This document shows, one piece after another, positions 1 to 45,635 of a stretch of 64,000 nt of DNA. Position 1 is the first letter of the stretch, and each line of letters begins with the position of its first letter. The DNA is taken from positions 12,941-76,940 of IMG/VR virus record IMGVR_UViG_3300021432_000008. The stretch is one strand, 5' to 3'. The translations under genes were made by a program, and so were the position numbers. The stretch is from a virus. The notes under the pieces are model-generated. The model was not told the DNA's origin and made no database searches. It saw nothing but the letters and a program-made list of their open reading frames with translations.

Positions 1-34
1 CGTGTTGTGAGGACAAGTTCGATAGCTACGTCTG

Positions 35-432
35 CCAGCAACTATCTCAAGGTTCCCTGAATCGTTGCCGGATGAGCGACTGATAGCCCCCTGGTCTTCT
101 TCGACGACCCGCAACGCTCTCAGGGTTCCCTCGATCGTTGCCGGGCCTATTCCGGAGATCCCAAGATGACCCGCAACTTTCTCAGGGCTCCCTTGATCGT
201 TGCTGGCCGCCGGCGATCGTCTCGAAGGTGTGCCGAATGCTGTACCCGCAACTTTCTCAGGGCTCCCTTGATCGTTGCTGGACGATCCTTTTACCACCTG
301 GAGATTATCGACCATGCAAGTCCCGCAACTTTCTCAGGGCTCCCTTGATCGTTGCTGGTTGTCTGGAACCCAGAACACCGCTGCCTGCATTGCCGCCCGC
401 AACTTTCTCAGGGCTCCCTTGATCGTTGCTGG
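35..432 (-). CRISPR. CRISPR array, 6 repeats of 37 bp and 5 spacers; may continue left of the window
   Basis: The + strand repeat CCCGCAACTTTCTCAGGGCTCCCTTGATCGTTGCTGG is identical at 170-206, 245-281, 322-358 and 396-432, and degenerate at 108-144 and 35-71. Unique spacers are 36, 25, 38, 40 and 37 nt. Degeneracy at the left end implies minus-strand transcription with the leader on the right. Confidence 0.97.
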
Positions 433-649
433 AGTCGCGGCCATAAAGGCATTGTTCCAGCCCATTTAAGCGACGTTTCGCGAGAGGCGCCCATCGGCAA
501 GCGATTGTGGCCTTGGTCGCGCTCAGCTTGGCGGTAGCTGGATGTTGGCAGCATTGGAGTTACGTCTCCGCGAGCGGTTCGCCGCAACCTATTTGGAACA
601 AACGGTGTCCATCAAGTGGGTTACGGCAAGATCCGCTCTGTCCATCGAT
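433..649 (-). promoter_or_regulatory. CRISPR leader / candidate structured ncRNA (tracr- or scout-like)
   Basis: Non-coding 217 bp between the conserved end of the array and the upstream ORF. Contains a long hairpin closed by GCCGTAACC (627-619) and GGTTGCGGC (589-581). Confidence 0.55.
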
Positions 650-1009
650 TCAAGCGCCACGCCGCTCGCGGAGTCGCTCTAGTTCAGCTGTCAGTTCCGC
701 CTCGCGCTGGCGGAGAGCGTCGTCGCTGCTCTCGCCGTCGTCGGCGATATTACATACCTCCTTCTGGGCGCCAACGCGCTGGCCGATCTCAATGGAACGC
801 AAGCCCGTGTTCACGCCGCGCAGCGACGTGTTCAGCTCTTTGCTCCCGTGGGCGCCGTGGAGCGCATCGAGCGAATGTCCGATAGCGAAGTTGGTAATGT
901 CCTGCACCGTGCGGATACCGCCGGATGCGACTTCGAGCGCCTTGCTCTTGCGCGGCCCGCCAGCAGTCGCCGGGTCGCCTTGACGTGTAATCGTGCCAGT
1001 CTCAGCCAT
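650..1009 (-). CDS. 119-aa hypothetical protein in the Cas12f-like operon, C-terminal coiled coil
   Basis: ATG at 1009 with an AAAGGGG RBS, 13 nt downstream of the effector stop. Sequence MAETGT...LRQREAELTAELERLRERRGA. Confidence 0.75.
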   Translation of the reverse strand: MAETGTITRQGDPATAGGPRKSKALEVASGGIRTVQDITNFAIGHSLDALHGAHGSKELNTSLRGVNTGLRSIEIGQRVGAQKEVCNIADDGESSDDALRQREAELTAELERLRERRGA

Positions 1010-1022
1010 TCGTCGTCCCCTT

Positions 1023-2177
1023 TCATGCAGCAGTCTCCTCTTCTCCGTCCGAAGCGCACCGGCAAACGATGCCGGTCGCCTTGAGCTTGTCCTTGAGTAG
1101 AGCCTTGAGCTTGAACCACGGGAACCGCTCAATGTGACCTTGTTCGAGGTCGCTGTACAGTACCGTGCCGACGCGGTTGCGTTGGGCAAAGCCAACAAGG
1201 TGCGCCGCTGTCTCGTGGAGCCACGAGGCCATGCGGTTGTGATGCTTTCGGCAGCAGCGGCCCCGCGAGCGGTTAATGGCGCCCAGCGCATCAGGATTGA
1301 GACGCCGCTCTGCCTTGCTGTCCTGCGCCAACCGGTCGAGTCTATCCTCATGGGCGGCAAGCCAGGCGAACGCTCGCTTCATGTGGTCGTTGTTGAGAAC
1401 CCATGCCTGCCGCCCATCCAACTCCGCTACCCAGAAGGCATTCGGGTCGGTGATCAGAGTTAATACGCGATCGCCCAACTTCTCACGGCAGGGCAACTCT
1501 GCCACCATCTTGACCAGCACGCGGGAATCCTCGCGAGCTTCCAGCCGCGGTCGGTGGCAACTCGGGGAGCAATGCTGCTCGCGAATAACCAGCTGGAACA
1601 TGGGCAGACTACCGTTGACCACCTGCCGGAATAGCCCCATCTGCCGGCCGAACTCGGCACCGCCACGAAGCTGGATGCCGACTCCGCCGTCTGGAAAGGA
1701 AAACTCCTGCGATGGCAAAACGACTTCGATACACGGTCTTCCATTGCGGTCCAGTCGTGCCTGTCGCCAAGCCTGCGCGTGGATTGGCCACGGGTAGGGA
1801 TAGCGGTAGGTACATGGCGCCTGCTTGCGATGCCAGATGACGTTCAGCCGTTCAGAAATGTACTTGCGCTCCACGTCGCGACAGATGGTGGAGGCACTTC
1901 TGCAAGCCCCCGTCCACCAGTTGCCCGGTTGCGTGAAGCCGAACGTCTCACTTGCGAGCCCGTACAATCCCTTGAGCCGCTTGCCGTTGATCTTCGGCAT
2001 CTTCGCTAGCTTGACCATGCCGGGCAGCCGAACCACGTCGTTGCGAAGGAGTTGCTGGACGCACCAGTTCGCAAGCATGGTCGCCTGCTTCCAGCACTCC
2101 CTGATCGTCTCCCACGCCTCGCGGGGTTCGACCACATTGACGGGCAACTCAAACGCTCTGACTACCGTGTCGCTCAT
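1023..2177 (-). CDS. Nuclease-dead Cas12f/TnpB-family RNA-guided DNA-binding protein, 384 aa
   Basis: ATG at 2177 with a GAGGAAGG RBS. Collinear with Cas12f1: TYRYPYP vs SYKRDIP; RuvC-I position VLTLITDP instead of MGIDLG; bridge helix NRMASWLHETAAHLVGFA; RuvC-II VGTVLYSDL instead of GTIQMEDL; FPWFKLKALLKDKLKATGI vs WTYYDLQQKIIYKAEEAGI. It stops before the zinc finger and RuvC-III, and is adjacent to the array. Confidence 0.85.
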   Translation of the reverse strand: MSDTVVRAFELPVNVVEPREAWETIRECWKQATMLANWCVQQLLRNDVVRLPGMVKLAKMPKINGKRLKGLYGLASETFGFTQPGNWWTGACRSASTICRDVERKYISERLNVIWHRKQAPCTYRYPYPWPIHAQAWRQARLDRNGRPCIEVVLPSQEFSFPDGGVGIQLRGGAEFGRQMGLFRQVVNGSLPMFQLVIREQHCSPSCHRPRLEAREDSRVLVKMVAELPCREKLGDRVLTLITDPNAFWVAELDGRQAWVLNNDHMKRAFAWLAAHEDRLDRLAQDSKAERRLNPDALGAINRSRGRCCRKHHNRMASWLHETAAHLVGFAQRNRVGTVLYSDLEQGHIERFPWFKLKALLKDKLKATGIVCRCASDGEEETAA

Positions 2178-2211
2178 CGCTTTTACCTTCCTCTCGCAGC
2201 GACCAGTCAAA

Positions 2212-2239
2212 ATCGTACACCCGGTTTTCGGCGTGTCAA
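2212..2239 (-). promoter_or_regulatory. sigma70-type promoter of the cas12f-like operon
   Basis: TTGACA (2239-2234), 16-nt spacer, TACGAT (2217-2212), about 35 nt upstream of the ATG at 2177. Confidence 0.6.
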
Positions 2240-2280
2240 TACCCTCCCAGCGGTGTCCGAATTGGCACGGGCATAGCCGC

Positions 2281-2323
2281 GCACGCTGGCGCACGGTTAC
2301 GCACGCTGGCGCACGGTTACGCA
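2281..2323. repeat. 20-bp tandem repeat, candidate operator
   Basis: GCACGCTGGCGCACGGTTAC occurs twice. The core CGCACGCTGGCGCAC recurs at 3308-3322. Confidence 0.8.
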
Positions 2324-2346
2324 GGGAGAAAAAAAGTGCGGGCCGG

Positions 2347-2625
2347 CTACTTTTTCTTTTCCGTCGCCTCTTCCTTCGTCCGCTCGATGCCTCGGAACAT
2401 GCTGTAGCGGACCAGATCAAGCCAGTGCCAAACGTGTGCGTCTCCCATGAAGGAGTGCGGCAGAAGGTCGGGATAGCGCTCCCGCTCCGCCCGGAACTCG
2501 CTGTCGGTGAGCCCGAGCCACTTCGCTGCTTCCTTCTTGTCTGACCAAATCTGGTCGGGAGCATCGATGTACCTCAGCACACGTCCGACCTCCTTCGCCG
2601 GAGTCGCGGGAGCGAGCCGACTCAT
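2347..2625 (-). CDS. small HTH (AlpA/Xis/Cro-like) DNA-binding protein
   Basis: HTH-like SDKKEAAKWLGLTDSEFR; divergent from the RHH gene. Confidence 0.6.
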   Translation of the reverse strand: MSRLAPATPAKEVGRVLRYIDAPDQIWSDKKEAAKWLGLTDSEFRAERERYPDLLPHSFMGDAHVWHWLDLVRYSMFRGIERTKEEATEKKK

Positions 2626-2756
2626 GGGCTTGCTACACCGAACATCGTAACGACGGTTAATGCTACAGTCAACACGGAAATTTCATTTTATGTAACGATG
2701 GACGCGGTATAATGATATAGCGTCGGCTACCGTTACATTAGCCTTGCGAGCGTACC
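2626..2756. promoter_or_regulatory. divergent promoter/operator region (genetic switch)
   Basis: AT-rich; TATAAT at 2708-2713; repeated GTAACG/CGTTAC half-sites near 2646, 2692 and 2732. Confidence 0.55.
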
Positions 2757-3008
2757 ATGAGCATTGCTACACTGGTCAATATGGCCAAGAAGCAGAAGAC
2801 TGATCCGCCCGAAAAGAAGCCTAGCGCTGTCATCCGTGTAGAGGGAGACATCGCGCACATGCTAAACACTATCGCATCGTGGCGGAAAAAGGACGTCCCC
2901 GACATCGCGTCCCCAATTCTCCGCGCGAAGGTTGAGCAGCTATTTGCGGAAGTGCATCGCGAAATGGGCAAGACGATCGGCACTCTTCACGACGACGAGA
3001 ACACCTAA
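2757..3008 (+). CDS. ribbon-helix-helix repressor-like protein
   Basis: SAVIRVEGDIAHMLNTIASWRKKDVPDIASPILR fits a strand-helix-helix pattern. Confidence 0.6.
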   Translation: MSIATLVNMAKKQKTDPPEKKPSAVIRVEGDIAHMLNTIASWRKKDVPDIASPILRAKVEQLFAEVHREMGKTIGTLHDDENT

Positions 3009-3268
3009 AACCTCAGCCCCGCCGCCCTCAGCGCCTCTTCCGCCTCGATCTGCTCCCGCCGCAGCGCGTGCGCCGACGGCACGGGCACGGCAGGCACGAC
3101 CGGCGTCAGCAGTGCCTCCACGTCAACGCGGCGCACGAGCAGACGAGTCCCGGCACGGCGAAGCGCGGGCAACTTGCCCTCGGAGACGAGTCGATAGATT
3201 GTGGCGACGTGGACGGACAGCAGGCGCGCCGCCGTCTTCGGGCTGATCAAATCGTTCGGGAGAGACAT
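3005..3268 (-). CDS. excisionase-family HTH_17 protein
   Basis: LISPKTAARLLSVHVATIYRLVSEGKLPALR; GGAGG RBS before the ATG at 3268. Confidence 0.85.
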   Translation of the reverse strand: MSLPNDLISPKTAARLLSVHVATIYRLVSEGKLPALRRAGTRLLVRRVDVEALLTPVVPAVPVPSAHALRREQIEAEEALRAAGLRF

Positions 3269-3517
3269 GACATGGGACCTCCATGTGGACCGCGAGCGCA
3301 TCCCTCCCGCACGCTGGCGCACACGAGCCGGCCGGGAGAGACGAGAGTATCCTGAAAGATGGGCACATGCAGATGGGCATGCAGAGAGTGAAACGCAGCA
3401 ACCCTACGTCGCCTTCTGGGCTTGGTCAAGGACATACGGGTGTCGCTCTTTCGCTTTCGGCAACCTGCTCCGCATTCGCTCGCGGAGCGTAAAATTGTGT
3501 TCGTGGAGGAATGAAGC

Positions 3518-3814
3518 ATGACGACCTTCAAGATCGGGCAGTCCGTTGACTTCATCCGCGAAGTGTGGGAAGAGGAATGGGTCTATGGTCGTAAGGAGTC
3601 TTGCCACGTCGGCTACGACCTGGCCGATGGTCGTGTGGTGAATGCCGACGATGAGACGGTCGTGATCGCGCCTGACGATCGCAAGCGACTGGTCTTTGTT
3701 TCGCCATCGCTCGTCTTCGCCAAGGACGCCGATGGGCGCATGGCAGACGAGGCAAGGACGAAACTCAAGGCGATTGAGCTAGAGAATTTCCCCGACCACA
3801 CCTGGAAGTTCTGA
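3518..3814 (+). CDS. hypothetical phage protein
   Basis: GGAGG RBS; first gene of a co-oriented + strand cluster. Confidence 0.7.
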   Translation: MTTFKIGQSVDFIREVWEEEWVYGRKESCHVGYDLADGRVVNADDETVVIAPDDRKRLVFVSPSLVFAKDADGRMADEARTKLKAIELENFPDHTWKF

Positions 3815-3856
3815 GCGGTGGCGAGCGACAAATTCCGCAAGCGTGGAGGATGACGA

Positions 3857-4369
3857 ATGAACCGCACCGACTGGAACCCACACGACCGACACACCTGCGG
3901 CGATTGCCGGGTGCTGGAAGGTCAGCTTCACAAACGAGGGTGCGATTGCGAGCGCTGCCCGATATGCCTTGGGCAGTTGATCTCCTGCGGCTGCTGTTAC
4001 CGGCATTTCTACCCCGAGTACGATGACAGGCTGGTGCATGATCTGCGGACGCAGTACGCGGAAGCCTGCCGTGCCGGTTTCCCCCATGTCCATCCCACGA
4101 ACGGCTTGCCCAGAGCCGTGTACGAGAATGGCTTGCCTGACGAGCAGTCCGAGGAATGGGACCGCATCCTCGAAGCAAAGGGACGCATTCCCTACGTGGT
4201 TGCACCCAACCTCTGCGCCCGCTGCGGCGAGCTGTGGCCGGAGATGTTCCACGTTGAGGACTGGAGCGACGTGATTCCGAAGGACCTTCAGGGCGCGATG
4301 CTTTGCCGGGGCTGCTACGAGGCAATCAAGGGGTTCGTGCTCAAGGGCAGAACGGAGGAACGCAGATGA
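3857..4369 (+). CDS. Cys-rich zinc-binding phage protein
   Basis: CGDC...[30 protein letters not shown]; GGAGG RBS. Confidence 0.75.
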
Positions 4370-4752
4370 CCCGCGCCGACCGCCTCGCCTGGGCCAAGAC
4401 CGCCACCGTCTGGCAATGGACCGTGGCATGCGCTACCCTGGTGATGGGGTGGAATGAACACCGCGGCGCGTGGATAGACGAGCACGGCAATGCCACAGGG
4501 TTGACCGATGATGGCTACGGCGGGGGAGGAGAGCCGATCCGCGCCTGGAACCCCATCGAACGCATCGAGGACTCCTGGCTTGTCCACCAGCGTATCGGGC
4601 AGGGTGAGTTGAGAGAACGGTACAGCCGGGAACTGGCCAGCGTAATCCTTGGACGCATGGGAGCCAGGGCGACGGACTACAGATACTTCGCCCTGGACAT
4701 GACGCCGCGCGATGTGTGTTTGGCGGCGCTGCTGACCGTGGAGGAAGCATGA
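4366..4752 (+). CDS. phage ABA-sandwich-like protein
   Basis: VMGW...[13 protein letters not shown]...[10 protein letters not shown]; ATGA coupling to the upstream gene. Confidence 0.6.
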
Positions 4753-5441
4753 CCGAGACGGAATGGAACGCGAGCGCGGACCCGGTCGCTATGCTCGATT
4801 GGCGGATGGGTCGCGATCAGGAGGGGCACGCCGGACAGTCTCCAGCAAGCCCCATCAGCGACCGGCAACTCCGCCTTTTTGCGGTTGCGTGTTGCAGGTC
4901 TGTCTTTAGCCTCCTCACGGACAAGCGATCCCGCAAGGCTGTGGAGGTAGCGGAGAGGTTCGCGGATGGGGAGGCGACGAAGGAGGAGACGTTCAAACTC
5001 GCATCGTCCTGCATGACGCTTGCACGTTGCTTGATGCCATCATGGGAAGGGGATGCGGAAGCCAGGGCGATAATCGAAACTGCCGAAATGCACAATCAGG
5101 ACGCCTTGCCTGGATACGCCAATCTCCTTCGGGAGATCATCGGTGACCCCTTCCGGCAAGTGGCCCTCTACGTATCCGGCAACGGCTCGGGTGAAGTATC
5201 AACCAACAGCAGCGGCGACGGTCCCTGGTGGCCACTCACCCCGCAGGCCCTCGCGCTTTGCGAAGTGGCGTACCGCGAGCGTGGAAGCGACGGCTCCCTG
5301 GACCCGCTGACGCTGAAATTGGTGGCGGATGCGCTGGAAGAGGCCGGTGCCGACGACTCGGTAATTCTCGGCCACCTAAGAAATGCAGGCCCGCATGTCA
5401 GAGGCTGCTGGGCAGTCGATTTGCTACTTGGAAAGGAGTAA
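4749..5441 (+). CDS. Gemmataceae-expanded family protein (often labelled SMI1/KNR4-like)
   Basis: MTETEW...RQLRLFAVACCR...VADALEEAG...HVRGCWAVDLLLGKE. Confidence 0.8.
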   Translation: MTETEWNASADPVAMLDWRMGRDQEGHAGQSPASPISDRQLRLFAVACCRSVFSLLTDKRSRKAVEVAERFADGEATKEETFKLASSCMTLARCLMPSWEGDAEARAIIETAEMHNQDALPGYANLLREIIGDPFRQVALYVSGNGSGEVSTNSSGDGPWWPLTPQALALCEVAYRERGSDGSLDPLTLKLVADALEEAGADDSVILGHLRNAGPHVRGCWAVDLLLGKE

Positions 5442-5445
5442 CAAC

Positions 5446-5721
5446 ATGGCACGCGGCGAAGCGTTTTTCAAGCTGCCTGACGAAGAAGTGGTCAATCTCT
5501 GGCGCATTGACCCGCCTGGGCGACGTGCCATCAGCGAAGGCGACGAGGTTACCATTCGGGAACTGCGGCAATACGGACGCAATCATCTGGTGAAAGGTGG
5601 CCGTCGGCTGCGCGTGCGTGTCGTGTCTATAGACAGGGCGGACGCCCTACACGCATGCCATGTGGAGATTCTGGCAGACCTATCGCCGCCACCGGCTCGG
5701 CAAGGAGAGTTGTTTGATTGA
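5446..5721 (+). CDS. hypothetical protein
   Basis: AGGAG RBS; directly follows the previous stop. Confidence 0.6.
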   Translation: MARGEAFFKLPDEEVVNLWRIDPPGRRAISEGDEVTIRELRQYGRNHLVKGGRRLRVRVVSIDRADALHACHVEILADLSPPPARQGELFD

Positions 5722-5786
5722 CCTCACCCCAACCTCCGCGCCGCCTCCCGTGCCCGCTCCACGTCCTCCCCTCAAGGAGTCTGTAA

Positions 5787-6002
5787 ATGAGCCAGCCTAA
5801 ACTGAGCATGACCGGCAAGGGTTCGCGCGGCGACTATCAGGTGTACGAGATAACAATGGAGATGACGCAGTTGACCGACACGATTGCTTTCGTGACCATC
5901 TGGGCAGGCGGGCGGCGAACCTACGAATTCGACAGCGATATGACCTACACGGAGGAGCTGCTCACTGAGATCATCAGCCTGGCGAAGACAGCCTCTCCGT
6001 GA
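5787..6002 (+). CDS. hypothetical protein
   Basis: AAGGAG RBS; 71 aa. Confidence 0.6.
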   Translation: MSQPKLSMTGKGSRGDYQVYEITMEMTQLTDTIAFVTIWAGGRRTYEFDSDMTYTEELLTEIISLAKTASP

Positions 6003-6025
6003 CAGCCTACCCCGTTATTCTACGC

Positions 6026-7105
6026 TCATCCCAACCTACGGGCCACTTGCTTCGCCATCTCCAAGTCGGTTTGCTGGCCGTAGCCGTCCGTGACCTGAAT
6101 GCTCTTCTGGCCGAGATAGCTTCGAGCAAAATCCAGTCCCAGCGCCCGCGTCACCCTCTGTTTCGCCGCATGCCGGCACTGGTACGGATGCAGCTGCACG
6201 CCGGCCTCCTCCGCGGCCGCGCGCACGGCCTTCGTCAGCCCCCAGCGCGAGTACGGGCCCCGCTGGCCGACGAACACGAAGTCGTCGCCGTTCTTGCCCT
6301 CCAGCCACGGCGCCAGAACCTTCTGCGCGCTCGTGCCCATGACGATCTCGCGGACGTGCCCAAGATGCGCGGTCTTGTGCTTAGCGGGCCGAAATACCCA
6401 CTCCTCGCCAGCACGATCAACCTCGCACGCGCGCATCACGCGAACCTCGCCCGTGCGGCACCCGGTAAACCACATGAAGAGCAACATCGCCCGCGGCATC
6501 GGCTTGAGCCGCCGGCACACGGCGATGATTGCCGGCCACTCTGCGGGCCGCACGGGCTCCGTGCTGCGGTGCTGGCGGTCCTGCTTGCCGATGGGTCGCA
6601 ACGAGTGCAGGTGAGCCCATGAGCCTCTGGGAGCCAGCTTCAGACGCTCCAGCCGCCGCCAGATCGTCTTGATGCGGATGGTCTGCCGGTTGATGTGGTT
6701 GCGGCACCATCCCTTCTCGCCCATCGCCTTGCGGACGTCGTCCAGATCATCGATACCGAAGCCGTCCGTCGTCAGGTCGCGGTGGAGCGACAGCAGCACC
6801 TCGATCACGCGCTTGTAATGGCGGAACTCGTCGCGCTCGCCGTAGTGTCCCGTGGCCCACTCAAGCCACTTGGCGATGGCCCCGGAGATGGTCGGCCACG
6901 CTCCGGCGAGGATGCGAGGCGGCTCGCCCGGTTGCGGTTTGTCGCTCTCAGCCGCAGCGAGCCGGACCAGCAGAGCGGCGTATTCCTGCGCGTTGTCACC
7001 ACCGATGGGCCCGATGTAATAATCGTGCCCCCGCCAGCGGACCCGTTCTCGACCGCTGATATGGTGCGCCCGAGGTTGCGGCGGCCACTTCACCTTGCGT
7101 CCCAT
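6026..7105 (-). CDS. int: tyrosine recombinase / phage integrase
   Basis: TGCRTGE (Arg), KHKT (Lys), HPYQCRH, LGQ and TDGY (Tyr); N-terminal arm-binding region. Confidence 0.92.
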   Translation of the reverse strand: MGRKVKWPPQPRAHHISGRERVRWRGHDYYIGPIGGDNAQEYAALLVRLAAAESDKPQPGEPPRILAGAWPTISGAIAKWLEWATGHYGERDEFRHYKRVIEVLLSLHRDLTTDGFGIDDLDDVRKAMGEKGWCRNHINRQTIRIKTIWRRLERLKLAPRGSWAHLHSLRPIGKQDRQHRSTEPVRPAEWPAIIAVCRRLKPMPRAMLLFMWFTGCRTGEVRVMRACEVDRAGEEWVFRPAKHKTAHLGHVREIVMGTSAQKVLAPWLEGKNGDDFVFVGQRGPYSRWGLTKAVRAAAEEAGVQLHPYQCRHAAKQRVTRALGLDFARSYLGQKSIQVTDGYGQQTDLEMAKQVARRLG

Positions 7106-7404
7106 CGGCTCCTCCCTCTTGCGCCCGGAATGTGGGTATTCCGGGGTAATGATTCAAGGGTAGGGGCAGGACGGCTATAAAAAAGCTCCTCTTTCGCAGG
7201 CTGCGCAATTGAGTTTCGCAATTCTCTCACCGGGCGATAGGTTCGCCCGGGGCGTGTCGTTTGCCGTCCTGGCCCGACGCTTGACAGAAACCTTGATGGG
7301 GTGCGAGGATAACGAGAGGGGCGGAACAGGTCAATACGTCTCAGTGGCGTTCGCAGCTACCTACGATACCCTACAAACAAATCGGGTAGGGAGTGCCCGT
7401 CGCC

Positions 7405-7752
7405 TCACCCCACTTCCGACCGCGGTGCCCATGCCTCCTCGCACGCCAGGCCCAGCAGCAGCTTGCCCGCCTTGCGGACGCCATGCTTGCCGGCGATCTT
7501 CTCGCGCACGCGCCGGAAGAAGCCCTCGCGCGCGGGGTACTCGACAGCACGCGAGGAAGTGACCAGCAGCAAGTCAATGAGGAAGTCGTCGGGGAACTCG
7601 CGCACGTCGATCTCATCAAGGATCGCGTTGATGACCTCGAAGCGCCGGCGCTCACGCAGAGAATGGACGGTCCTGAGCATCTCCCGGCAGGCGCGTGGCA
7701 AGTCGAAGAGGACCTGTCGGCGCCAGTCGGAGATGAGGTCGGAGGAGAGCAT
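7405..7752 (-). CDS. hypothetical protein
   Basis: 115-aa ORF following the upstream gene. Confidence 0.55.
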   Translation of the reverse strand: MLSSDLISDWRRQVLFDLPRACREMLRTVHSLRERRRFEVINAILDEIDVREFPDDFLIDLLLVTSSRAVEYPAREGFFRRVREKIAGKHGVRKAGKLLLGLACEEAWAPRSEVG

Positions 7753-7758
7753 CGGAGG

Positions 7759-7944
7759 CTAATCCTTGTTCCATTGGCGAACGTGGTACTTGACCGATTC
7801 GACCAGATGACTCAGGTCCTCCAAGTGAACTTCGTCGATGTTCTTGTGGTCTTGGACACGTTCGTTGATCTGACCAAGGAGAGCCTGAACTTTGCTGATC
7901 TGAGAATCGATCTCCTTCTTCCTCGACAACTGGTCCTCTGTCAT
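7759..7944 (-). CDS. small coiled-coil hypothetical protein
   Basis: GAGGAGG RBS; MTEDQLSRKKE... Confidence 0.6.
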   Translation of the reverse strand: MTEDQLSRKKEIDSQISKVQALLGQINERVQDHKNIDEVHLEDLSHLVESVKYHVRQWNKD

Positions 7945-8077
7945 TGTGCCCCTCCTCAATCCCAACGGTCGAGCCGAACCTGTTGCCAGTCCGATGCCGA
8001 AGAAGCGGACAAGGTTCGCGCGAATTACCCGCACGCTGCTGCGATGCGCCCCGCCAGCGCCGTCGTGGAGAGGCGCG

Positions 8078-10243
8078 CTACCAGATCCGGTGCGTCCCAA
8101 TGCGTTCAACCGTGGCCGGCCGATCCGAAGCGCCGACAGCCTTCGCGCCGTTCAGTTGCTCTCTGAGCCAGAACGGACTGTGGAGGATGCGGCATCCCCA
8201 GAAGGGCAGTCCGCCCGTGTCGTGGTTCTTGTGGTTCCACGTATGGCCGGAGAGCGGGAAGATCGTGAAGTTACGCAGGACCGCCGCCACGCACAACGCC
8301 GACTGGTCATCGACGGACAGGGTTCGGCAGATGTCCCAGGCCTGGCTGACCACTTTCGCGAGTCCAGGGTGATCCTTGCGGAAGAAGATCACGCCGGCGT
8401 TGAAGAGCGGCACGAAGCTCGCTCCCGGTAGGTACTCGCGCACAGCCTTCGTTATGTGCTCGTATCCATCGACGATCTCGTTGTCGTCGCCATACTCGCG
8501 TTGCCCGACGTGGTGCTTGTCGTAGGCCATCGCCAGCCCGAACTGCTCGGCTCGCACGAACGGCCAGTCGAAACTGATCGGATCGGGAGCATCGTGGGGA
8601 GGCAACCGCGGCGAGAGCGGATGCTCTGGCCCAATCACGAAGGCGTCGGTATCGAGGTAGAGCGTCAGGTCATAGGGCGACTTCTCGAAGATGACGAGCT
8701 TCTGCGCCATCGCGTTGCTGCCCACGCCAAACGCCGTCGCGTCGTAGGGTATCACGGAGTCGAACAGTCCACGATCGACAGCGAGGTTTGCCGTCTGCTC
8801 CAGCAGCAGAGAGATGGGCAGACCGAGCCGCCGGGCGCAGCGAGCGGAGTAGTGCAGCTCCTCCACGTTGTCGCTGGCGAACGGCTCGCTCCGATCCTCC
8901 GGCTGGCGTGGGTCATAGACGAGGAAGACGACACCCCGCGGCGGCGTGATGACAGTCATGCGGTTCTCCAGGTCGGCCTTGTCGAAGGTACGCAACTCGC
9001 TCCAGCGGTCATGGACGCCGACAGCCACTGTCCATCTCTCGCCGTCAAGGACGGCACCGCCGGGGAAGAGAACACCGGCGTACTGATCCGCCGGCTTCGT
9101 GTTCCAGTCGGCCGACGCGATCGGCTCGGACAGAAAACGCCTGATCGCAAATGGAGGCTTCGCATCGAAGGTATAGACGCCCATGTGGTAGGTAATCCGC
9201 CCACCCGGCTCCGTCCGCGAGTGGAAGAAGTGCCAGAACTCATCCCCCACGAGGACAGGGGAAGCACCGCCCCGCATTTCCCCTTCGGTCCAGTGAACCC
9301 GCGTCGGTGTCTGGTAGGCCATCTCCGCTTGCTCGCCATCGATACGGAGGATACGGTGTGGAGCGATGGAGTACACCGCGTAAAGGCTGCCGTCGTGCTC
9401 GAACACCCCCCAATTCTTCTCCCAGAGGTTCCTCTTGGGATAGTTCGGGTAGAAGATTTGCTCGACGCGCAGGTCATCGCTCAGGCGGGCATACAAGACG
9501 CTTGTGTGCAGGAACGTGGTCTTGCCCACAACGCCCGTGTACATGACGTGGAGCTTGCCGCGAAACATGAAGAGTCTGGGGTCTTCCCGTCCGAAATTCG
9601 CCTGCTGCTGGTGGAACAGGTCGAGCTTCACCGGCTCGCCAAACGGTCGAAAACGGGCATCCATCCTCTGGAGGAAAATCTCGCTGCCCGCCCAGCCGTT
9701 GCGGAAGGCGAACAGGTAGCCGTCCTGCCAGCGGATGAGCGATGGGTTGAAGCGCAGACCGGATGGGCCGGGAAGGGTGTGCTGGTCGATGCGGATGGTG
9801 TTGCCGTCCTCGACTGTCGGGGCGATTGCCGGCACTGGGCCATGTGTGATGATGGGCGGATTGTGGATGCGGGGCGGCTCTGTCCTTCTGTTCTTCGCCC
9901 TCTCGCGGTTCCGCTTCACCCGCTCTGCGTCCTTGCCCGCCTCCGGATGGTCGTTACATCGCTGGCAATAGCTGACTGCCCTGTCCTTAGATAGCTTCTC
10001 CTGCGTGCAGGAACCGTGGAGATTGCACGCCATCAGATCAACCATGACGACGCTGCCGCGGCAGGCATCGCACGGTGTTTCCCCGATCTTCGGCCCCTGA
10101 TGGGGACAGATGCCGCGGAGCAAGTGCGCCCCACGCGATGGCTGGCCGTTCTCCCGCGCCTGCGCCAGCACGCGCGGATCGTCGTCCGCGACCTCGATCT
10201 CGTTGTACAGCCCCGGTCCCAGGTATTCGAGGATAGTTGGCAT
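8078..10243 (-). CDS. GH130-like beta-propeller plus GT8-like glycosyltransferase fusion with Cys-rich N-terminus
   Basis: FNPSL, EDPRL, EKNW and RGG propeller motifs; TLYLDTD (DxD), FNAGVIFF and DQSAL GT-A motifs. Confidence 0.8.
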   Translation of the reverse strand: MPTILEYLGPGLYNEIEVADDDPRVLAQARENGQPSRGAHLLRGICPHQGPKIGETPCDACRGSVVMVDLMACNLHGSCTQEKLSKDRAVSYCQRCNDHPEAGKDAERVKRNRERAKNRRTEPPRIHNPPIITHGPVPAIAPTVEDGNTIRIDQHTLPGPSGLRFNPSLIRWQDGYLFAFRNGWAGSEIFLQRMDARFRPFGEPVKLDLFHQQQANFGREDPRLFMFRGKLHVMYTGVVGKTTFLHTSVLYARLSDDLRVEQIFYPNYPKRNLWEKNWGVFEHDGSLYAVYSIAPHRILRIDGEQAEMAYQTPTRVHWTEGEMRGGASPVLVGDEFWHFFHSRTEPGGRITYHMGVYTFDAKPPFAIRRFLSEPIASADWNTKPADQYAGVLFPGGAVLDGERWTVAVGVHDRWSELRTFDKADLENRMTVITPPRGVVFLVYDPRQPEDRSEPFASDNVEELHYSARCARRLGLPISLLLEQTANLAVDRGLFDSVIPYDATAFGVGSNAMAQKLVIFEKSPYDLTLYLDTDAFVIGPEHPLSPRLPPHDAPDPISFDWPFVRAEQFGLAMAYDKHHVGQREYGDDNEIVDGYEHITKAVREYLPGASFVPLFNAGVIFFRKDHPGLAKVVSQAWDICRTLSVDDQSALCVAAVLRNFTIFPLSGHTWNHKNHDTGGLPFWGCRILHSPFWLREQLNGAKAVGASDRPATVERIGTHRIW

Positions 10244-41845: not shown

Positions 41846-42105
41846 CGCAAGAACCTCCACCAGAGAAACAGTTGTATCGCGGCCCCAGCGAGCGCACCGG
41901 CCAGTAACCCCGGCCATGCCCTCCGCCAGAGGAGCCTAAGGGTGGATTCCGTGGGCTTAACGAAGTGTGGCACGTAGCCCTTCGGCGGTGCGTCCGGTAT
42001 CGGTCGCGGTGGTATCATCACTGCCGGTCCTCTCAGCGGCGCAATCGCTCCCTCGGGTTTGTCGATGCGCTCGCCCTTGGCGTTCACGTAGACTGGCTGG
42101 CTCAT
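41842..42105 (-). CDS. small protein with C-terminal transmembrane helix
   Basis: AWPGLLAGALAGAAIQLFLWW. Confidence 0.55.
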   Translation of the reverse strand: MSQPVYVNAKGERIDKPEGAIAPLRGPAVMIPPRPIPDAPPKGYVPHFVKPTESTLRLLWRRAWPGLLAGALAGAAIQLFLWWRFLR

Positions 42106-45100
42106 TGAAATATCCCCCACTTTTTGAACACGTCGCTGCACTTCGGAAAGCGCTTCACGATCTCCGCTCGGTCGGTGTCCGTCCCGTGGACCAGCCGGAA
42201 GAACTCCGCGAAGCCCTCACGCGGCAGCGTCTTCGCGTAGTCCGACAGCCCGCCCGGCTTGATCTCGCTCTGGTACGCCTCCTGCCACTCAGGCGAAGAC
42301 GAGATCTCGTACTCCGGCCCATCGACGGCATGACCGAACTCGTGGGCGTACAGTTCGCGCGCCGGCTGGCCTCTTGGCGTATCGCCGTCGAGGTGGAGGC
42401 GCTTCCGCGAGCCGTCGTAACCGCCGCCAGCGATCTTGCCGGCGAACGCTGCCAGCTGCGAGGGCGGCAGGGCGCCCTTCGTGAGATCCTGACACGAGCC
42501 ATAGAAGCGATACTCTCTTGCACCTTTGTTGAATCGCTCAAGAGCCTTCGCGGGCAGGGCGTGAAGGACCTGGCTTGCAGTAGCCCGGCACGCCTGTCGC
42601 TTCGTTTCGCCAAGAGCGGCATGGCGGTTGAGGGCATCGTCCAGGCGGAAGTGGGCGGCTTCCAGCGAATGGGCGCGGGAGGGAGAGGGCTTGTCGGGTT
42701 CCGGCTCGGCGGCGGGCTTTGTGGGCTCGGTGCGCTTCATCAGGTCCATCATGGAGGAGAGGGAGCCAGCGCCTTCCGCGACGGGGTCAACCTCTCCTTT
42801 CGGCTTCCACTCGCTTTCGGTTTCTCCTCCGGTCGGCGCCTTCTCGTACCCGGCTTTCGTCAGGGCATGGGCATAGATGCGTCGGCGTCTTTCCTCTGTC
42901 ACGCCGTAGTGGATGCCCAGGCCGGCTTTTGCTGCCTTGCCCAGAAACGTCTGGAACTTGTGCATCAGATCAACAGTGCCCGGTTGAAGTTTCTTATTGG
43001 TCACGTCATACGAGGCATCCTGGGTGTATTGGATATACACCGCCTTATCTTGCGGCAGGAATTCCAGGCCAAGTTTACGACCAGCTTCCTCGACAATCAC
43101 GTCATCGTCCCCGGAGTCGGGACTGACAGACTCGCCGAACACTTCCTTCACGGCAGACTGGAATGCCCGTCGTGCTTCCTTCCTCTCGGCACGGCGTTTC
43201 TCCTTTTCCTCCTCCGTCCCCGACCGCCGTTTTTCCTTGTCGGCCTTCCGGCTATCGATGGACTGCTTCAGTTCCTTCCACCGCGCCATGGCGGCGTCAG
43301 CCTTCGCAATCGCATCGTCGGGCTGAGCCTTCTGCTCCACCTTCGCCTTCTCTTCCGGCGTCGCCTTCTCCATCACGTCGCCGGGGATGAACTCGCCGCC
43401 CGTGTAGAACGTACCGCCAATCGTGACACCACCCGCCGGAGCATGGTGCGCCGCGAACCGCAGCACCATCTCGTCAGCCAGCTCGCCCTTGCCGCACTTG
43501 CGCAAGTGGTTCACCACTCTGGCCAGCCGGGCGTGACGCAGGCTGACGGGGGCGAAGGGCGGAACCGCTGGCCGCATGGATGCGGAAGGGGCAGCGCTCG
43601 ATGAAGGGGTGACGGCGCCGGAGTCGGGGGCCTCGGTGGGAGGCTCCACGACCACGTCCGGCTTCACCGTGTCGTCTTGCTCCCGTGCATACCGCAGTGC
43701 CTCCGTCGCCTCCCGCATGGCCCGCAGAGCGTCGAGGAAGTCGCCCCCGCCTCCGGGCTGGCCGTTGGGCTGTTCGTCTCCTGGCGCCCCCTCTGGCGAT
43801 GGTGAGCCTCCACCACCTCCCATCAATGCCGCCAGAGGGTCAGCCCCACCGCCAGCCCCCGGCGGCCCACCGCCGGGGGCACCGCCCGCGGGCTGCGGCG
43901 GTTGCACCAGCTCGTCGCCGTCCGCCGGCTTGCCGAACCCAGCCGCGTCGCGCATGTCGTCGGCGCGGGTGGGAATGCCCATGTCCACGAGTGTCTTGCC
44001 CGAAGTGACCTTCTCTTGGTCCATCTTCGAGCCGTGATCGTAGACAAACGACACGGGGAAGTCGCTTATCGTCTCGGGAAAGCTGTACTCCTGCATGATG
44101 CTGACCATGCCGGGGTTGTACGTGTCCCCCGTCATGCTCATGGCGTGCCAGGCTGCATCCTGGCGAGCAATGGCTTCTTTGGTGTCCTGCTGAAACTCCG
44201 AAGACGACTTGTTGCTGTGCCCATCGGCCGACGTGGCACTGGCGCTGCCCTCCTGCCCCACGACGTAGCGCTCCATCTGCTTGTCGAAATACTCCACCAG
44301 CTTGATCATCTCCCCCGCGCCGGCCGTGGGCACCTCCAGACGCTCCAGCGTGGTACTTCGCTCCTGTCCGGGGATGACGGGAACGAAGAGGTTGGCGCGG
44401 TCCGACTGGTTCTTGGCCGCCGTCTGTGCGGCGTTCAGCGCTTCCACGTTGCCGGACGGGTAGGTCCAGATGTTGACGCCCAGCCCTATGCGGTCATAGA
44501 ACTCAGCAACCCTGCCAAGGAAGTCTTTCTTGAGGAAGTCGCACCAGAACAGGTGCGAGCGGATGCCGACGCCGTGGATGGCGTCCCCCTGCATCGAGCC
44601 CAGGAAGAAGTCGCGGTCCTCCATGAACTGGTAGTGCAAGAGGAAACGCTTCCGCCATGTTCCGCGCAGGGAGAGTGCCCTTCCCACGGTCGTGTTGACG
44701 ATGGAAGCGTTGGGGTCGAGGTGTCTCAACTCGTTCGTGTAGGCGCTGTTCACGAGGACGTAGGGGGTGCCGTCGAGCTGGTGGCCGATCTTGTCTCCCT
44801 GGACCTCCCACGCCTGCAAGACGCTGAGAGCCTTTCGCTTCTTCGCTCCCGTGCCGAACTGCTGATCCGGGTTGGGCAGCCCCATCTCGTCGAGGCGGGC
44901 GCCGTAGGCTTTCTCCGCTCCACGATCGGCGGGATCTTCAAGCATGCGCTCGCGGAGGTAGCGGAGCACGGGGTCAATGCGCATCATGGCCTGTGCAGCA
45001 GCGGGAGCGGGTGCCGGCTGCTGCTGGGTAGGCTGTTTGCCCTTGTCCTTCTTCGCGTCGAAGTCGTCGCGGACATCCGTCTTGCCCCACTCGATCTGCA

Positions 45101-45635
45101 CGCCCTGCCGGCCGAACCAGATGGCCCAGTAGTGCGACGGGATGATCCGCGGCATCTGGGTGACGGCCTTCATCTGGCGCGTGAGGCTGTCCTTGACATG
45201 GACCTGCCAGGGGTCCTTCTCGTCGGGCACTTCCAGGTGCCACTTGCGGGACGATACCGCCAGCATGCGCTCCTGAAGCAAGCCGCGAAGGTAGACGTCG
45301 TTGAGCATGTCAACAGCGTCCTTGCGGCCGTGGCGCATCGCCTCATCGTACATGGTCTGCCAGAACGTGTAGTCGCCGCCCGTGGTTCTCGCGACGAAGA
45401 GGTAGCCGCCCGGCAGCGCCAGGCCGCCGGGGTGGGCGTTGCCGTCTGGGACCTTGCGATCGGAGCGGATGGGCCGGCCCATGCCGTCCACCAGCTGGGG
45501 CGCTCCGCCTGCTGAGATGTGCTGGAGCGCCATGTCGGAGAAGGCGTTGCCCACGGACACCTTGCCCTGCGGGTAGATGCCCGGCTCCGTGAAGGAGTGC
45601 GTCGGCTGCTGGAGTGTCGAGCGGGAGCGGGCCAT
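42102..45635 (-). CDS. portal protein (Mu gp29/DUF935-like) fused to an ATLF-like zinc metallopeptidase
   Basis: LQERMLAVSSRKW, AIWFGRQGVQIEW and YFDKQMERYVVGQ portal motifs; C-terminal YAHEFGHAVD...SDYA...EGFAE. Confidence 0.85.
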   Translation of the reverse strand: MARSRSTLQQPTHSFTEPGIYPQGKVSVGNAFSDMALQHISAGGAPQLVDGMGRPIRSDRKVPDGNAHPGGLALPGGYLFVARTTGGDYTFWQTMYDEAMRHGRKDAVDMLNDVYLRGLLQERMLAVSSRKWHLEVPDEKDPWQVHVKDSLTRQMKAVTQMPRIIPSHYWAIWFGRQGVQIEWGKTDVRDDFDAKKDKGKQPTQQQPAPAPAAAQAMMRIDPVLRYLRERMLEDPADRGAEKAYGARLDEMGLPNPDQQFGTGAKKRKALSVLQAWEVQGDKIGHQLDGTPYVLVNSAYTNELRHLDPNASIVNTTVGRALSLRGTWRKRFLLHYQFMEDRDFFLGSMQGDAIHGVGIRSHLFWCDFLKKDFLGRVAEFYDRIGLGVNIWTYPSGNVEALNAAQTAAKNQSDRANLFVPVIPGQERSTTLERLEVPTAGAGEMIKLVEYFDKQMERYVVGQEGSASATSADGHSNKSSSEFQQDTKEAIARQDAAWHAMSMTGDTYNPGMVSIMQEYSFPETISDFPVSFVYDHGSKMDQEKVTSGKTLVDMGIPTRADDMRDAAGFGKPADGDELVQPPQPAGGAPGGGPPGAGGGADPLAALMGGGGGSPSPEGAPGDEQPNGQPGGGGDFLDALRAMREATEALRYAREQDDTVKPDVVVEPPTEAPDSGAVTPSSSAAPSASMRPAVPPFAPVSLRHARLARVVNHLRKCGKGELADEMVLRFAAHHAPAGGVTIGGTFYTGGEFIPGDVMEKATPEEKAKVEQKAQPDDAIAKADAAMARWKELKQSIDSRKADKEKRRSGTEEEKEKRRAERKEARRAFQSAVKEVFGESVSPDSGDDDVIVEEAGRKLGLEFLPQDKAVYIQYTQDASYDVTNKKLQPGTVDLMHKFQTFLGKAAKAGLGIHYGVTEERRRRIYAHALTKAGYEKAPTGGETESEWKPKGEVDPVAEGAGSLSSMMDLMKRTEPTKPAAEPEPDKPSPSRAHSLEAAHFRLDDALNRHAALGETKRQACRATASQVLHALPAKALERFNKGAREYRFYGSCQDLTKGALPPSQLAAFAGKIAGGGYDGSRKRLHLDGDTPRGQPARELYAHEFGHAVDGPEYEISSSPEWQEAYQSEIKPGGLSDYAKTLPREGFAEFFRLVHGTDTDRAEIVKRFPKCSDVFKKWGIFQ

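Follow-up and report, generated by a model that had tools for sequence, protein, structure and literature searches.

Several described systems resemble the phage CRISPR locus analyzed here. In Bacteroidota, a nuclease-dead Cas12f (dCas12f) occurs in association with CRISPR arrays (Hoffmann et al., Nature 2026, PMC13472631; PDB 9n9c). Like dCas12f, the phage effector has a Cas12f fold, a C-terminus cut short so that part of the RuvC site is missing, and a CRISPR array nearby. The two proteins are distantly related, as the best PDB match of a profile built from the effector family was this natural nuclease-deactivated Cas12f, 9n9c (E 5.8e-5), and by analogy the phage protein may work in the same way. 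However, the sigma-E (ECF) gene that adjoins dCas12f in the dCas12f-sigmaE system has no counterpart in the phage locus, which carries a 119-aa open reading frame (ORF) at that place instead. The phage system also differs in its location on a temperate phage, probably of Planctomycetota, and in having a spacer that appears to fall inside a foreign ORF rather than at a host promoter.

TldR proteins are TnpB-like nuclease-dead repressors, including prophage-encoded, fliC-associated ones (Wiegand et al., PMC10705468). The phage effector is likewise a miniature TnpB-type protein with a decayed RuvC site and a truncated C-terminus, is carried by a temperate phage, and would be expected to repress by binding. 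Yet a TldR is directed to a host promoter by a single omega-RNA-derived guide, whereas the phage locus has a multi-spacer array of seven repeats and an apparent target in a mobile-element gene. A further comparison is offered by the Cas12r-CRISPR system of Thermus Lalka phages, in which RuvC is active and the D238A substitution abolishes interference; its authors point out that cutting integrated elements would harm a lysogenizing phage (10.64898/2026.04.20.719267). Both systems combine a compact type V effector with an array on a temperate phage and lack adaptation genes. Lalka Cas12r spacers are aimed at integrative elements with tyrosine integrases, and conflict between mobile elements would be common to the two. 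By contrast with the active RuvC of Cas12r, our phage effector could not cut by means of the canonical site. Finally, elongation is blocked by a type V guide that pairs with the template strand within an ORF, and dead Cas12a represses strongly in this arrangement (Zhang et al. 2017, PMC5460296). The phage spacer shares this orientation inside an ORF with engineered dead Cas12a CRISPRi, although dead Cas12a is an artificial D-to-A mutant of 1,300 aa and the phage effector is a naturally truncated, 384-aa protein of the Cas12f type.

The stretch of DNA that we analyzed (the window, 64,000 nt) comprises bases 12,941-76,940 of a 76,940-bp IMG/VR virus record that is estimated to be 93% complete. 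The record encodes a Mu-type portal, a terminase, and a tail fibre. It holds a single PF00589 gene, the phage's own tyrosine integrase, and the phage is therefore judged to be temperate. Atlas taxa hint at Planctomycetota as the host lineage. Contigs from a soil metagenome and a soil metatranscriptome carry an identical array region (window 1-9000). The metatranscriptome-library contigs cover this region evenly and without differences, which could reflect active infection or DNA carry-over; the even cover thus speaks neither for nor against transcription. Elsewhere in the window, residues 1093-1166 of the 1,177-aa Mu-type portal (42102-45635, minus) match PF07737, the anthrax lethal factor N/C domain, at a sub-threshold level (E 2.3e-4, 21 bits vs. 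a cut-off of 27), and this C-terminal stretch is possibly a fused domain, either protease-like or ejected. The features relevant to the CRISPR locus are as follows, in window coordinates.

1-432 (plus one repeat 4-40 nt upstream of window base 1), minus strand: CRISPR array of 7 repeats of 37 nt, six of them in the window.
170-206, minus strand: 37-nt repeat on the 3' side of spacer 207-244 in crRNA sense, identical to the repeat at 245-281.
207-244, minus strand (crRNA sense): the 38-nt spacer under study, third from the leader, reading YSIRHTFETIAG.
245-281, minus strand: 37-nt repeat on the 5' side of spacer 207-244 in crRNA sense, identical to the repeat at 170-206.
433-649, minus strand: probable leader, between the 119-aa ORF and the array.
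650-1009, minus strand: 119-aa ORF (P0002) of no known family, between the effector gene and the array.
1026-2177, minus strand: Cas12f/TnpB-like effector (P0005), 384 aa, without the RuvC-II Glu, the zinc-finger/TNB region, and RuvC-III.
6026-7105, minus strand: the phage's own tyrosine integrase (P0066), whose box II reads LHPYQCRHAAKQ; not the source of the spacer.

Judging from its sequence and predicted structure, the effector is very probably unable to cut. No Pfam family was assigned to it, with OrfB_IS605 reached at E 0.16 only and no match to Cas12f1-like_TNB, and its 60 homologues in metagenomes share 30-68% identity. Foldseek placed its AlphaFold model (pLDDT 88) with Cas12f, TnpB, and Cas12k at E values from 1e-16 to 1e-9; with AsCas12f and OsCas12f (E 1e-16, TM 0.59), the WED, REC, and RuvC core of the Cas12f fold was present. 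The RuvC-II glutamate aligns to Ser342, a position that is variable in the family, and the protein stops ~40 residues further on, after RuvC strand 5, so that it lacks the zinc-finger/TNB region as well as RuvC-III. Two of the three RuvC catalytic positions are missing, and neither an intact RuvC D-E-D triad nor a zinc-finger/TNB domain was found in the protein. The missing glutamate and the truncated C-terminus are common to all 41 of the 41 aligned homologues.

The first-pass annotation of this DNA had called the effector a dCas12a, which we correct here to a truncated Cas12f/TnpB-like protein. Identity as Cas12a was rejected on the length of 384 aa and on the structure search, in which Cas12f and TnpB rank first, and no member of the Cas12a family was found among the large ORFs. 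Just upstream of the effector gene, a 20-nt unit is perfectly duplicated in tandem (2280-2319), and this duplication may be an operator.

The array lies downstream of the effector gene and is co-oriented with it. We read it in the effector's direction, here the minus strand, because of the gradient of repeat decay and the layout shared with L003, a related viral contig. Its repeats are 62-77 nt apart, with six spacers of 25-40 nt between them; the four high-coordinate repeats are identical, and the three low-coordinate ones are decayed. The spacer at 145-169 is only 25 nt long and is flanked by two decayed repeats, while the remaining spacers measure 36-40 nt, a pattern that suggests the array is eroding at its old end. 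No Rfam family was detected in window 1-2800, the leader included. The segment at 207-244 has the marks of a bona fide spacer, with a unique sequence between conserved direct repeats, an adjoining Cas-type effector, and a layout that is kept in relatives. Its earlier reading on the minus strand was correct in both transcription and translation, with frame 0 giving YSIRHTFETIAG. If the crRNA is of type V, the repeat at 245-281 would supply the handle of the guide.

A search for related loci returned one relative in a viral contig and two in metagenomes; GTDB genomes yielded none. In L003, the viral relative, the effector is 29% identical and the order is effector, array, small-ORF homologue, and second array. 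Each L003 array is immediately preceded by a copy of a noncoding element of ~120 nt (L003:5100-5215 and L003:6165-6290) with a repeat-like sequence at its end; this element is a candidate for a leader or a tracr/scaffold RNA of the effector family. The 119-aa ORF had no match in Pfam or NCBIfam at E values up to 10. Homologues of it were found downstream of the effector in L004 (1404-1694, 46%) and between the two arrays of L003 (5826-6065, 42%), and a motif, EVASGG..QD, is conserved beside the dead effector at three loci. From this conservation, the ORF may encode a partner protein of the effector, and such a partner could give the complex another activity.

We next consider where the spacer came from. 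The first-pass annotation had proposed that the spacer peptide, YSIRHTFETIAG, fits box II of tyrosine recombinases, and this was borne out by homologue matches, alignment score, and controls. In a family of tyrosine integrases from Planctomycetota with the conserved box II sequence GFY[AS]LRHTFETIAG, 10-11 of the 12 peptide residues match, with 11 of 12 shared by P0067 and P0071. More than 5,500 proteins belong to this family, and all of the named ones are from Planctomycetota. It is found on chromosomes of that phylum, including those of Rhodopirellula, Crateriforma, Stieleria, and Gemmataceae, as well as in proviruses and phages. Among the top 120 members, 24 match the peptide at at least 10 of 12 residues. 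The Tyr, Arg, His, and Thr of box II are nearly invariant in the top 118, and a Phe precedes the Tyr in 110 of these 118. The region matched by the spacer takes in the catalytic Arg and the Tyr that replaces the first His of box II.

The same gene family emerged when DNA was searched. A codon-degenerate scan of IMG/VR for RHTFETIAG, the final nine residues, yielded two viral contigs, with each match at box II of an integrase ORF. One of these ORFs (L009) is 434 aa long, reads FYSLRHTFETIAG, scores above the PF00589 cut-off (E 1.8e-8), and has the same sequence as an integrase from Rhodopirellula sp. MGV. A looser scan brought up the motif in six viral contigs, where 7-12 of the 38 nt differ from the spacer. 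The nearest matches, in L009 and L015, agree at 31 of 38 nt, with 7 mismatches in the 38 nt and 3-4 in the first 20. The nearest DNA matches are all in integrase genes and in the frame of the spacer; no near-protospacer fell in another gene or another frame. In blastn against plasmids (PLSDB), the spacer reached chance-level E values, with one match in frame on HSLRHTFATIAL of an annotated Arthrobacter tyrosine recombinase. Translations of 20 residues around the spacer had no Pfam match in hmmscan, being too short to pass its filters.

A resemblance over just 12 residues might arise by chance, in a spacer unrelated to integrases. The integrase family was, moreover, retrieved with part of the spacer peptide as the query, and although GC3 in the integrase frame is 0.92, one frame on the opposite strand ties with it, so GC3 does not settle the coding strand. 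Still, the ungapped BLOSUM62 score against the integrase family was 61 for the spacer peptide, compared to 12-35 for the 35 remaining frames in the set of six spacers. In the null controls, ~5,000 in all, the maximum was 46 for 2,978 random 38-nt windows of the phage and 44 for 2,000 shuffled spacer sequences. Residues one to three, which lay outside the search pattern, match too (Y and S identical, I for L), and every match is exactly at box II. Chance is thus a very improbable explanation. A separate candidate, the plus frame of spacer 282-321 with a score of 35, matched a single family member and was itself judged a chance match. On the similarity of the peptide and its homologous sites, we consider it highly likely that spacer 207-244 derives from a gene of the Planctomycetota-type integrase family.

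The source does not appear to be the phage itself. Its own integrase had earlier been said to carry a different box II, and we confirmed that it reads LHPYQCRHAAKQ; the protein is of another type than the spacer's integrase family. Nor did blastn-short of all spacers against the phage genome give any self target. Because the own integrase differs and the 77-kb record contains no second match to the spacer, the target is foreign to this record, in agreement with the original claim of a non-self target. Elements that do carry the integrase family include G006, a 97.5-kb phage with terminal repeats and 100% completeness, and the proviruses G002 and G004; the terminase of our phage was absent from the carrier elements compared. 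G006, the record to which L016 belongs, has a full-length integrase of the target family at G006:C1:4725-5867 and, ~0.8 kb away at 6699-6854, a 52-residue N-terminal fragment of a second copy.

In the protospacer search that had been suggested earlier, near matches were all to integrases, as described above, but no exact or near-exact protospacer was present in any of the five collections searched (IMG/VR, JGI metagenome contigs, GTDB genomes, GenBank phages, and PLSDB). Scans for exact or synonymous coding of all 12 peptide residues gave no match in IMG/VR, in the genome contigs of GTDB, or in the metagenome contigs of JGI, and neither did a scan of IMG/VR for the first 8 residues. The whole array gave chance matches only in blastn against GenBank phages (E at least 2), and exact 24-mers of the two leader-proximal spacers were not found in IMG/VR. 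In total, one of the six spacers could be assigned, the other five having no recognizable coding motif or database match.

Given the number of these integrases in Planctomycetota chromosomes, the target might instead be a resident integrative element or a domesticated integrase of the host, with the guide serving regulation rather than defense, for example by locking a neighbor in place or by controlling a rearrangement of the host genome. A dead nuclease permits chromosomal targets, and dead TnpB and Cas12f relatives do regulate host genes, some of them from prophages (PMC10705468, PMC13472631). However, the known regulators of this kind aim at promoters and not at the interior of ORFs, no chromosomal protospacer was found among 185,579 species genomes, and a Planctomycetota host is hinted at by the atlas taxa only. 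We therefore regard a resident target as unlikely.

The six viral homologues also point to a protospacer-adjacent motif (PAM). In 6 of 6, a TTC or TTT, the codon of the conserved Phe, stands directly 5' of the site, and from these homologues we infer a 5' PAM of TTC/TTT. Since the guide reads in the same sense as the integrase mRNA, it can pair only with the template DNA strand and not with the mRNA. Pairing of the crRNA with the template strand had been claimed before; the sense orientation of the spacer upholds it, and dead Cas12a represses best with guides oriented in this way (PMC5460296).

Because the effector lacks cutting residues, binding and silencing of a rival is more probable than cutting. 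In the mechanism that we propose, a crRNA made of the repeat handle and spacer 207-244 would load the dead effector. The complex would recognize the TTC/TTT PAM provided by the conserved Phe codon and form an R-loop on the template strand within the integrase gene of a rival, which would be a temperate phage or an integrative element, and would bind there while leaving the DNA uncut. RNA polymerase would reach the PAM-proximal side of the complex before the rest, the arrangement in which dead Cas12a is known to act as a block. Integrase expression would then drop, and integration or excision of the rival would be impaired. A non-cutting effector could be used even against a rival that sits, integrated, in the same chromosome as the prophage. 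From the sequence and by analogy with the systems above, we slightly favor the view that the dead effector and its spacer guide silence a rival's integrase. We are considerably more tentative about the broader proposal, based on the same analogies, that this is a natural form of CRISPRi with which a temperate phage acts on rival integrase genes without cutting the chromosome, and that this explains the loss of the nuclease.

With only one of six spacers assignable, integrase cannot be claimed as a chosen target. Box II is the most recognizable short motif of temperate elements, so an integrase spacer would be noticed even if sampling were random. It is accordingly conceivable, if less probable, that the identity of the gene is incidental and that the array samples rival genomes at any PAM for general exclusion. 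To a similarly modest degree, the bound effector might then serve as a roadblock to replication or transcription of the rival, or a factor might be recruited through the 119-aa partner. Consistent with this, five of the six spacers lack a coding motif or database match, the 15 spacers of the L003 arrays gave background scores and no match against the integrase family and thus show no integrase bias, the 119-aa partner ORF is conserved, and the spacers of Lalka phages match many genes of integrative elements rather than integrase specifically. On the other hand, binding at one site in a late-acting, non-essential gene would not halt the lytic growth of a rival, whereas binding would affect lysogeny if the site is within the integrase gene, and the orientation of the guide suits a block of elongation.

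What is new here is the source family of the spacer, the PAM inferred for it, and the strand of its guide, all of which are well supported; the silencing of a rival's integrase is plausible. The design of a reporter follows from the PAM and the strand, with a TTC PAM, a target of 20-38 nt in a highly conserved motif, and template-strand orientation, and the 384-aa effector could possibly be of use as a compact CRISPRi tool. If the proposed silencing is true, the locus would represent a non-destructive, RNA-guided conflict between mobile elements. A non-cutting guide against a competitor's lysogeny gene would also solve the problem raised for the Lalka phages, namely that of cutting one's own future host. 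Phage CRISPR systems have been thought of as destroying competitors, and dead TnpB and Cas12f proteins as regulating host genes; this locus would unite both ideas.
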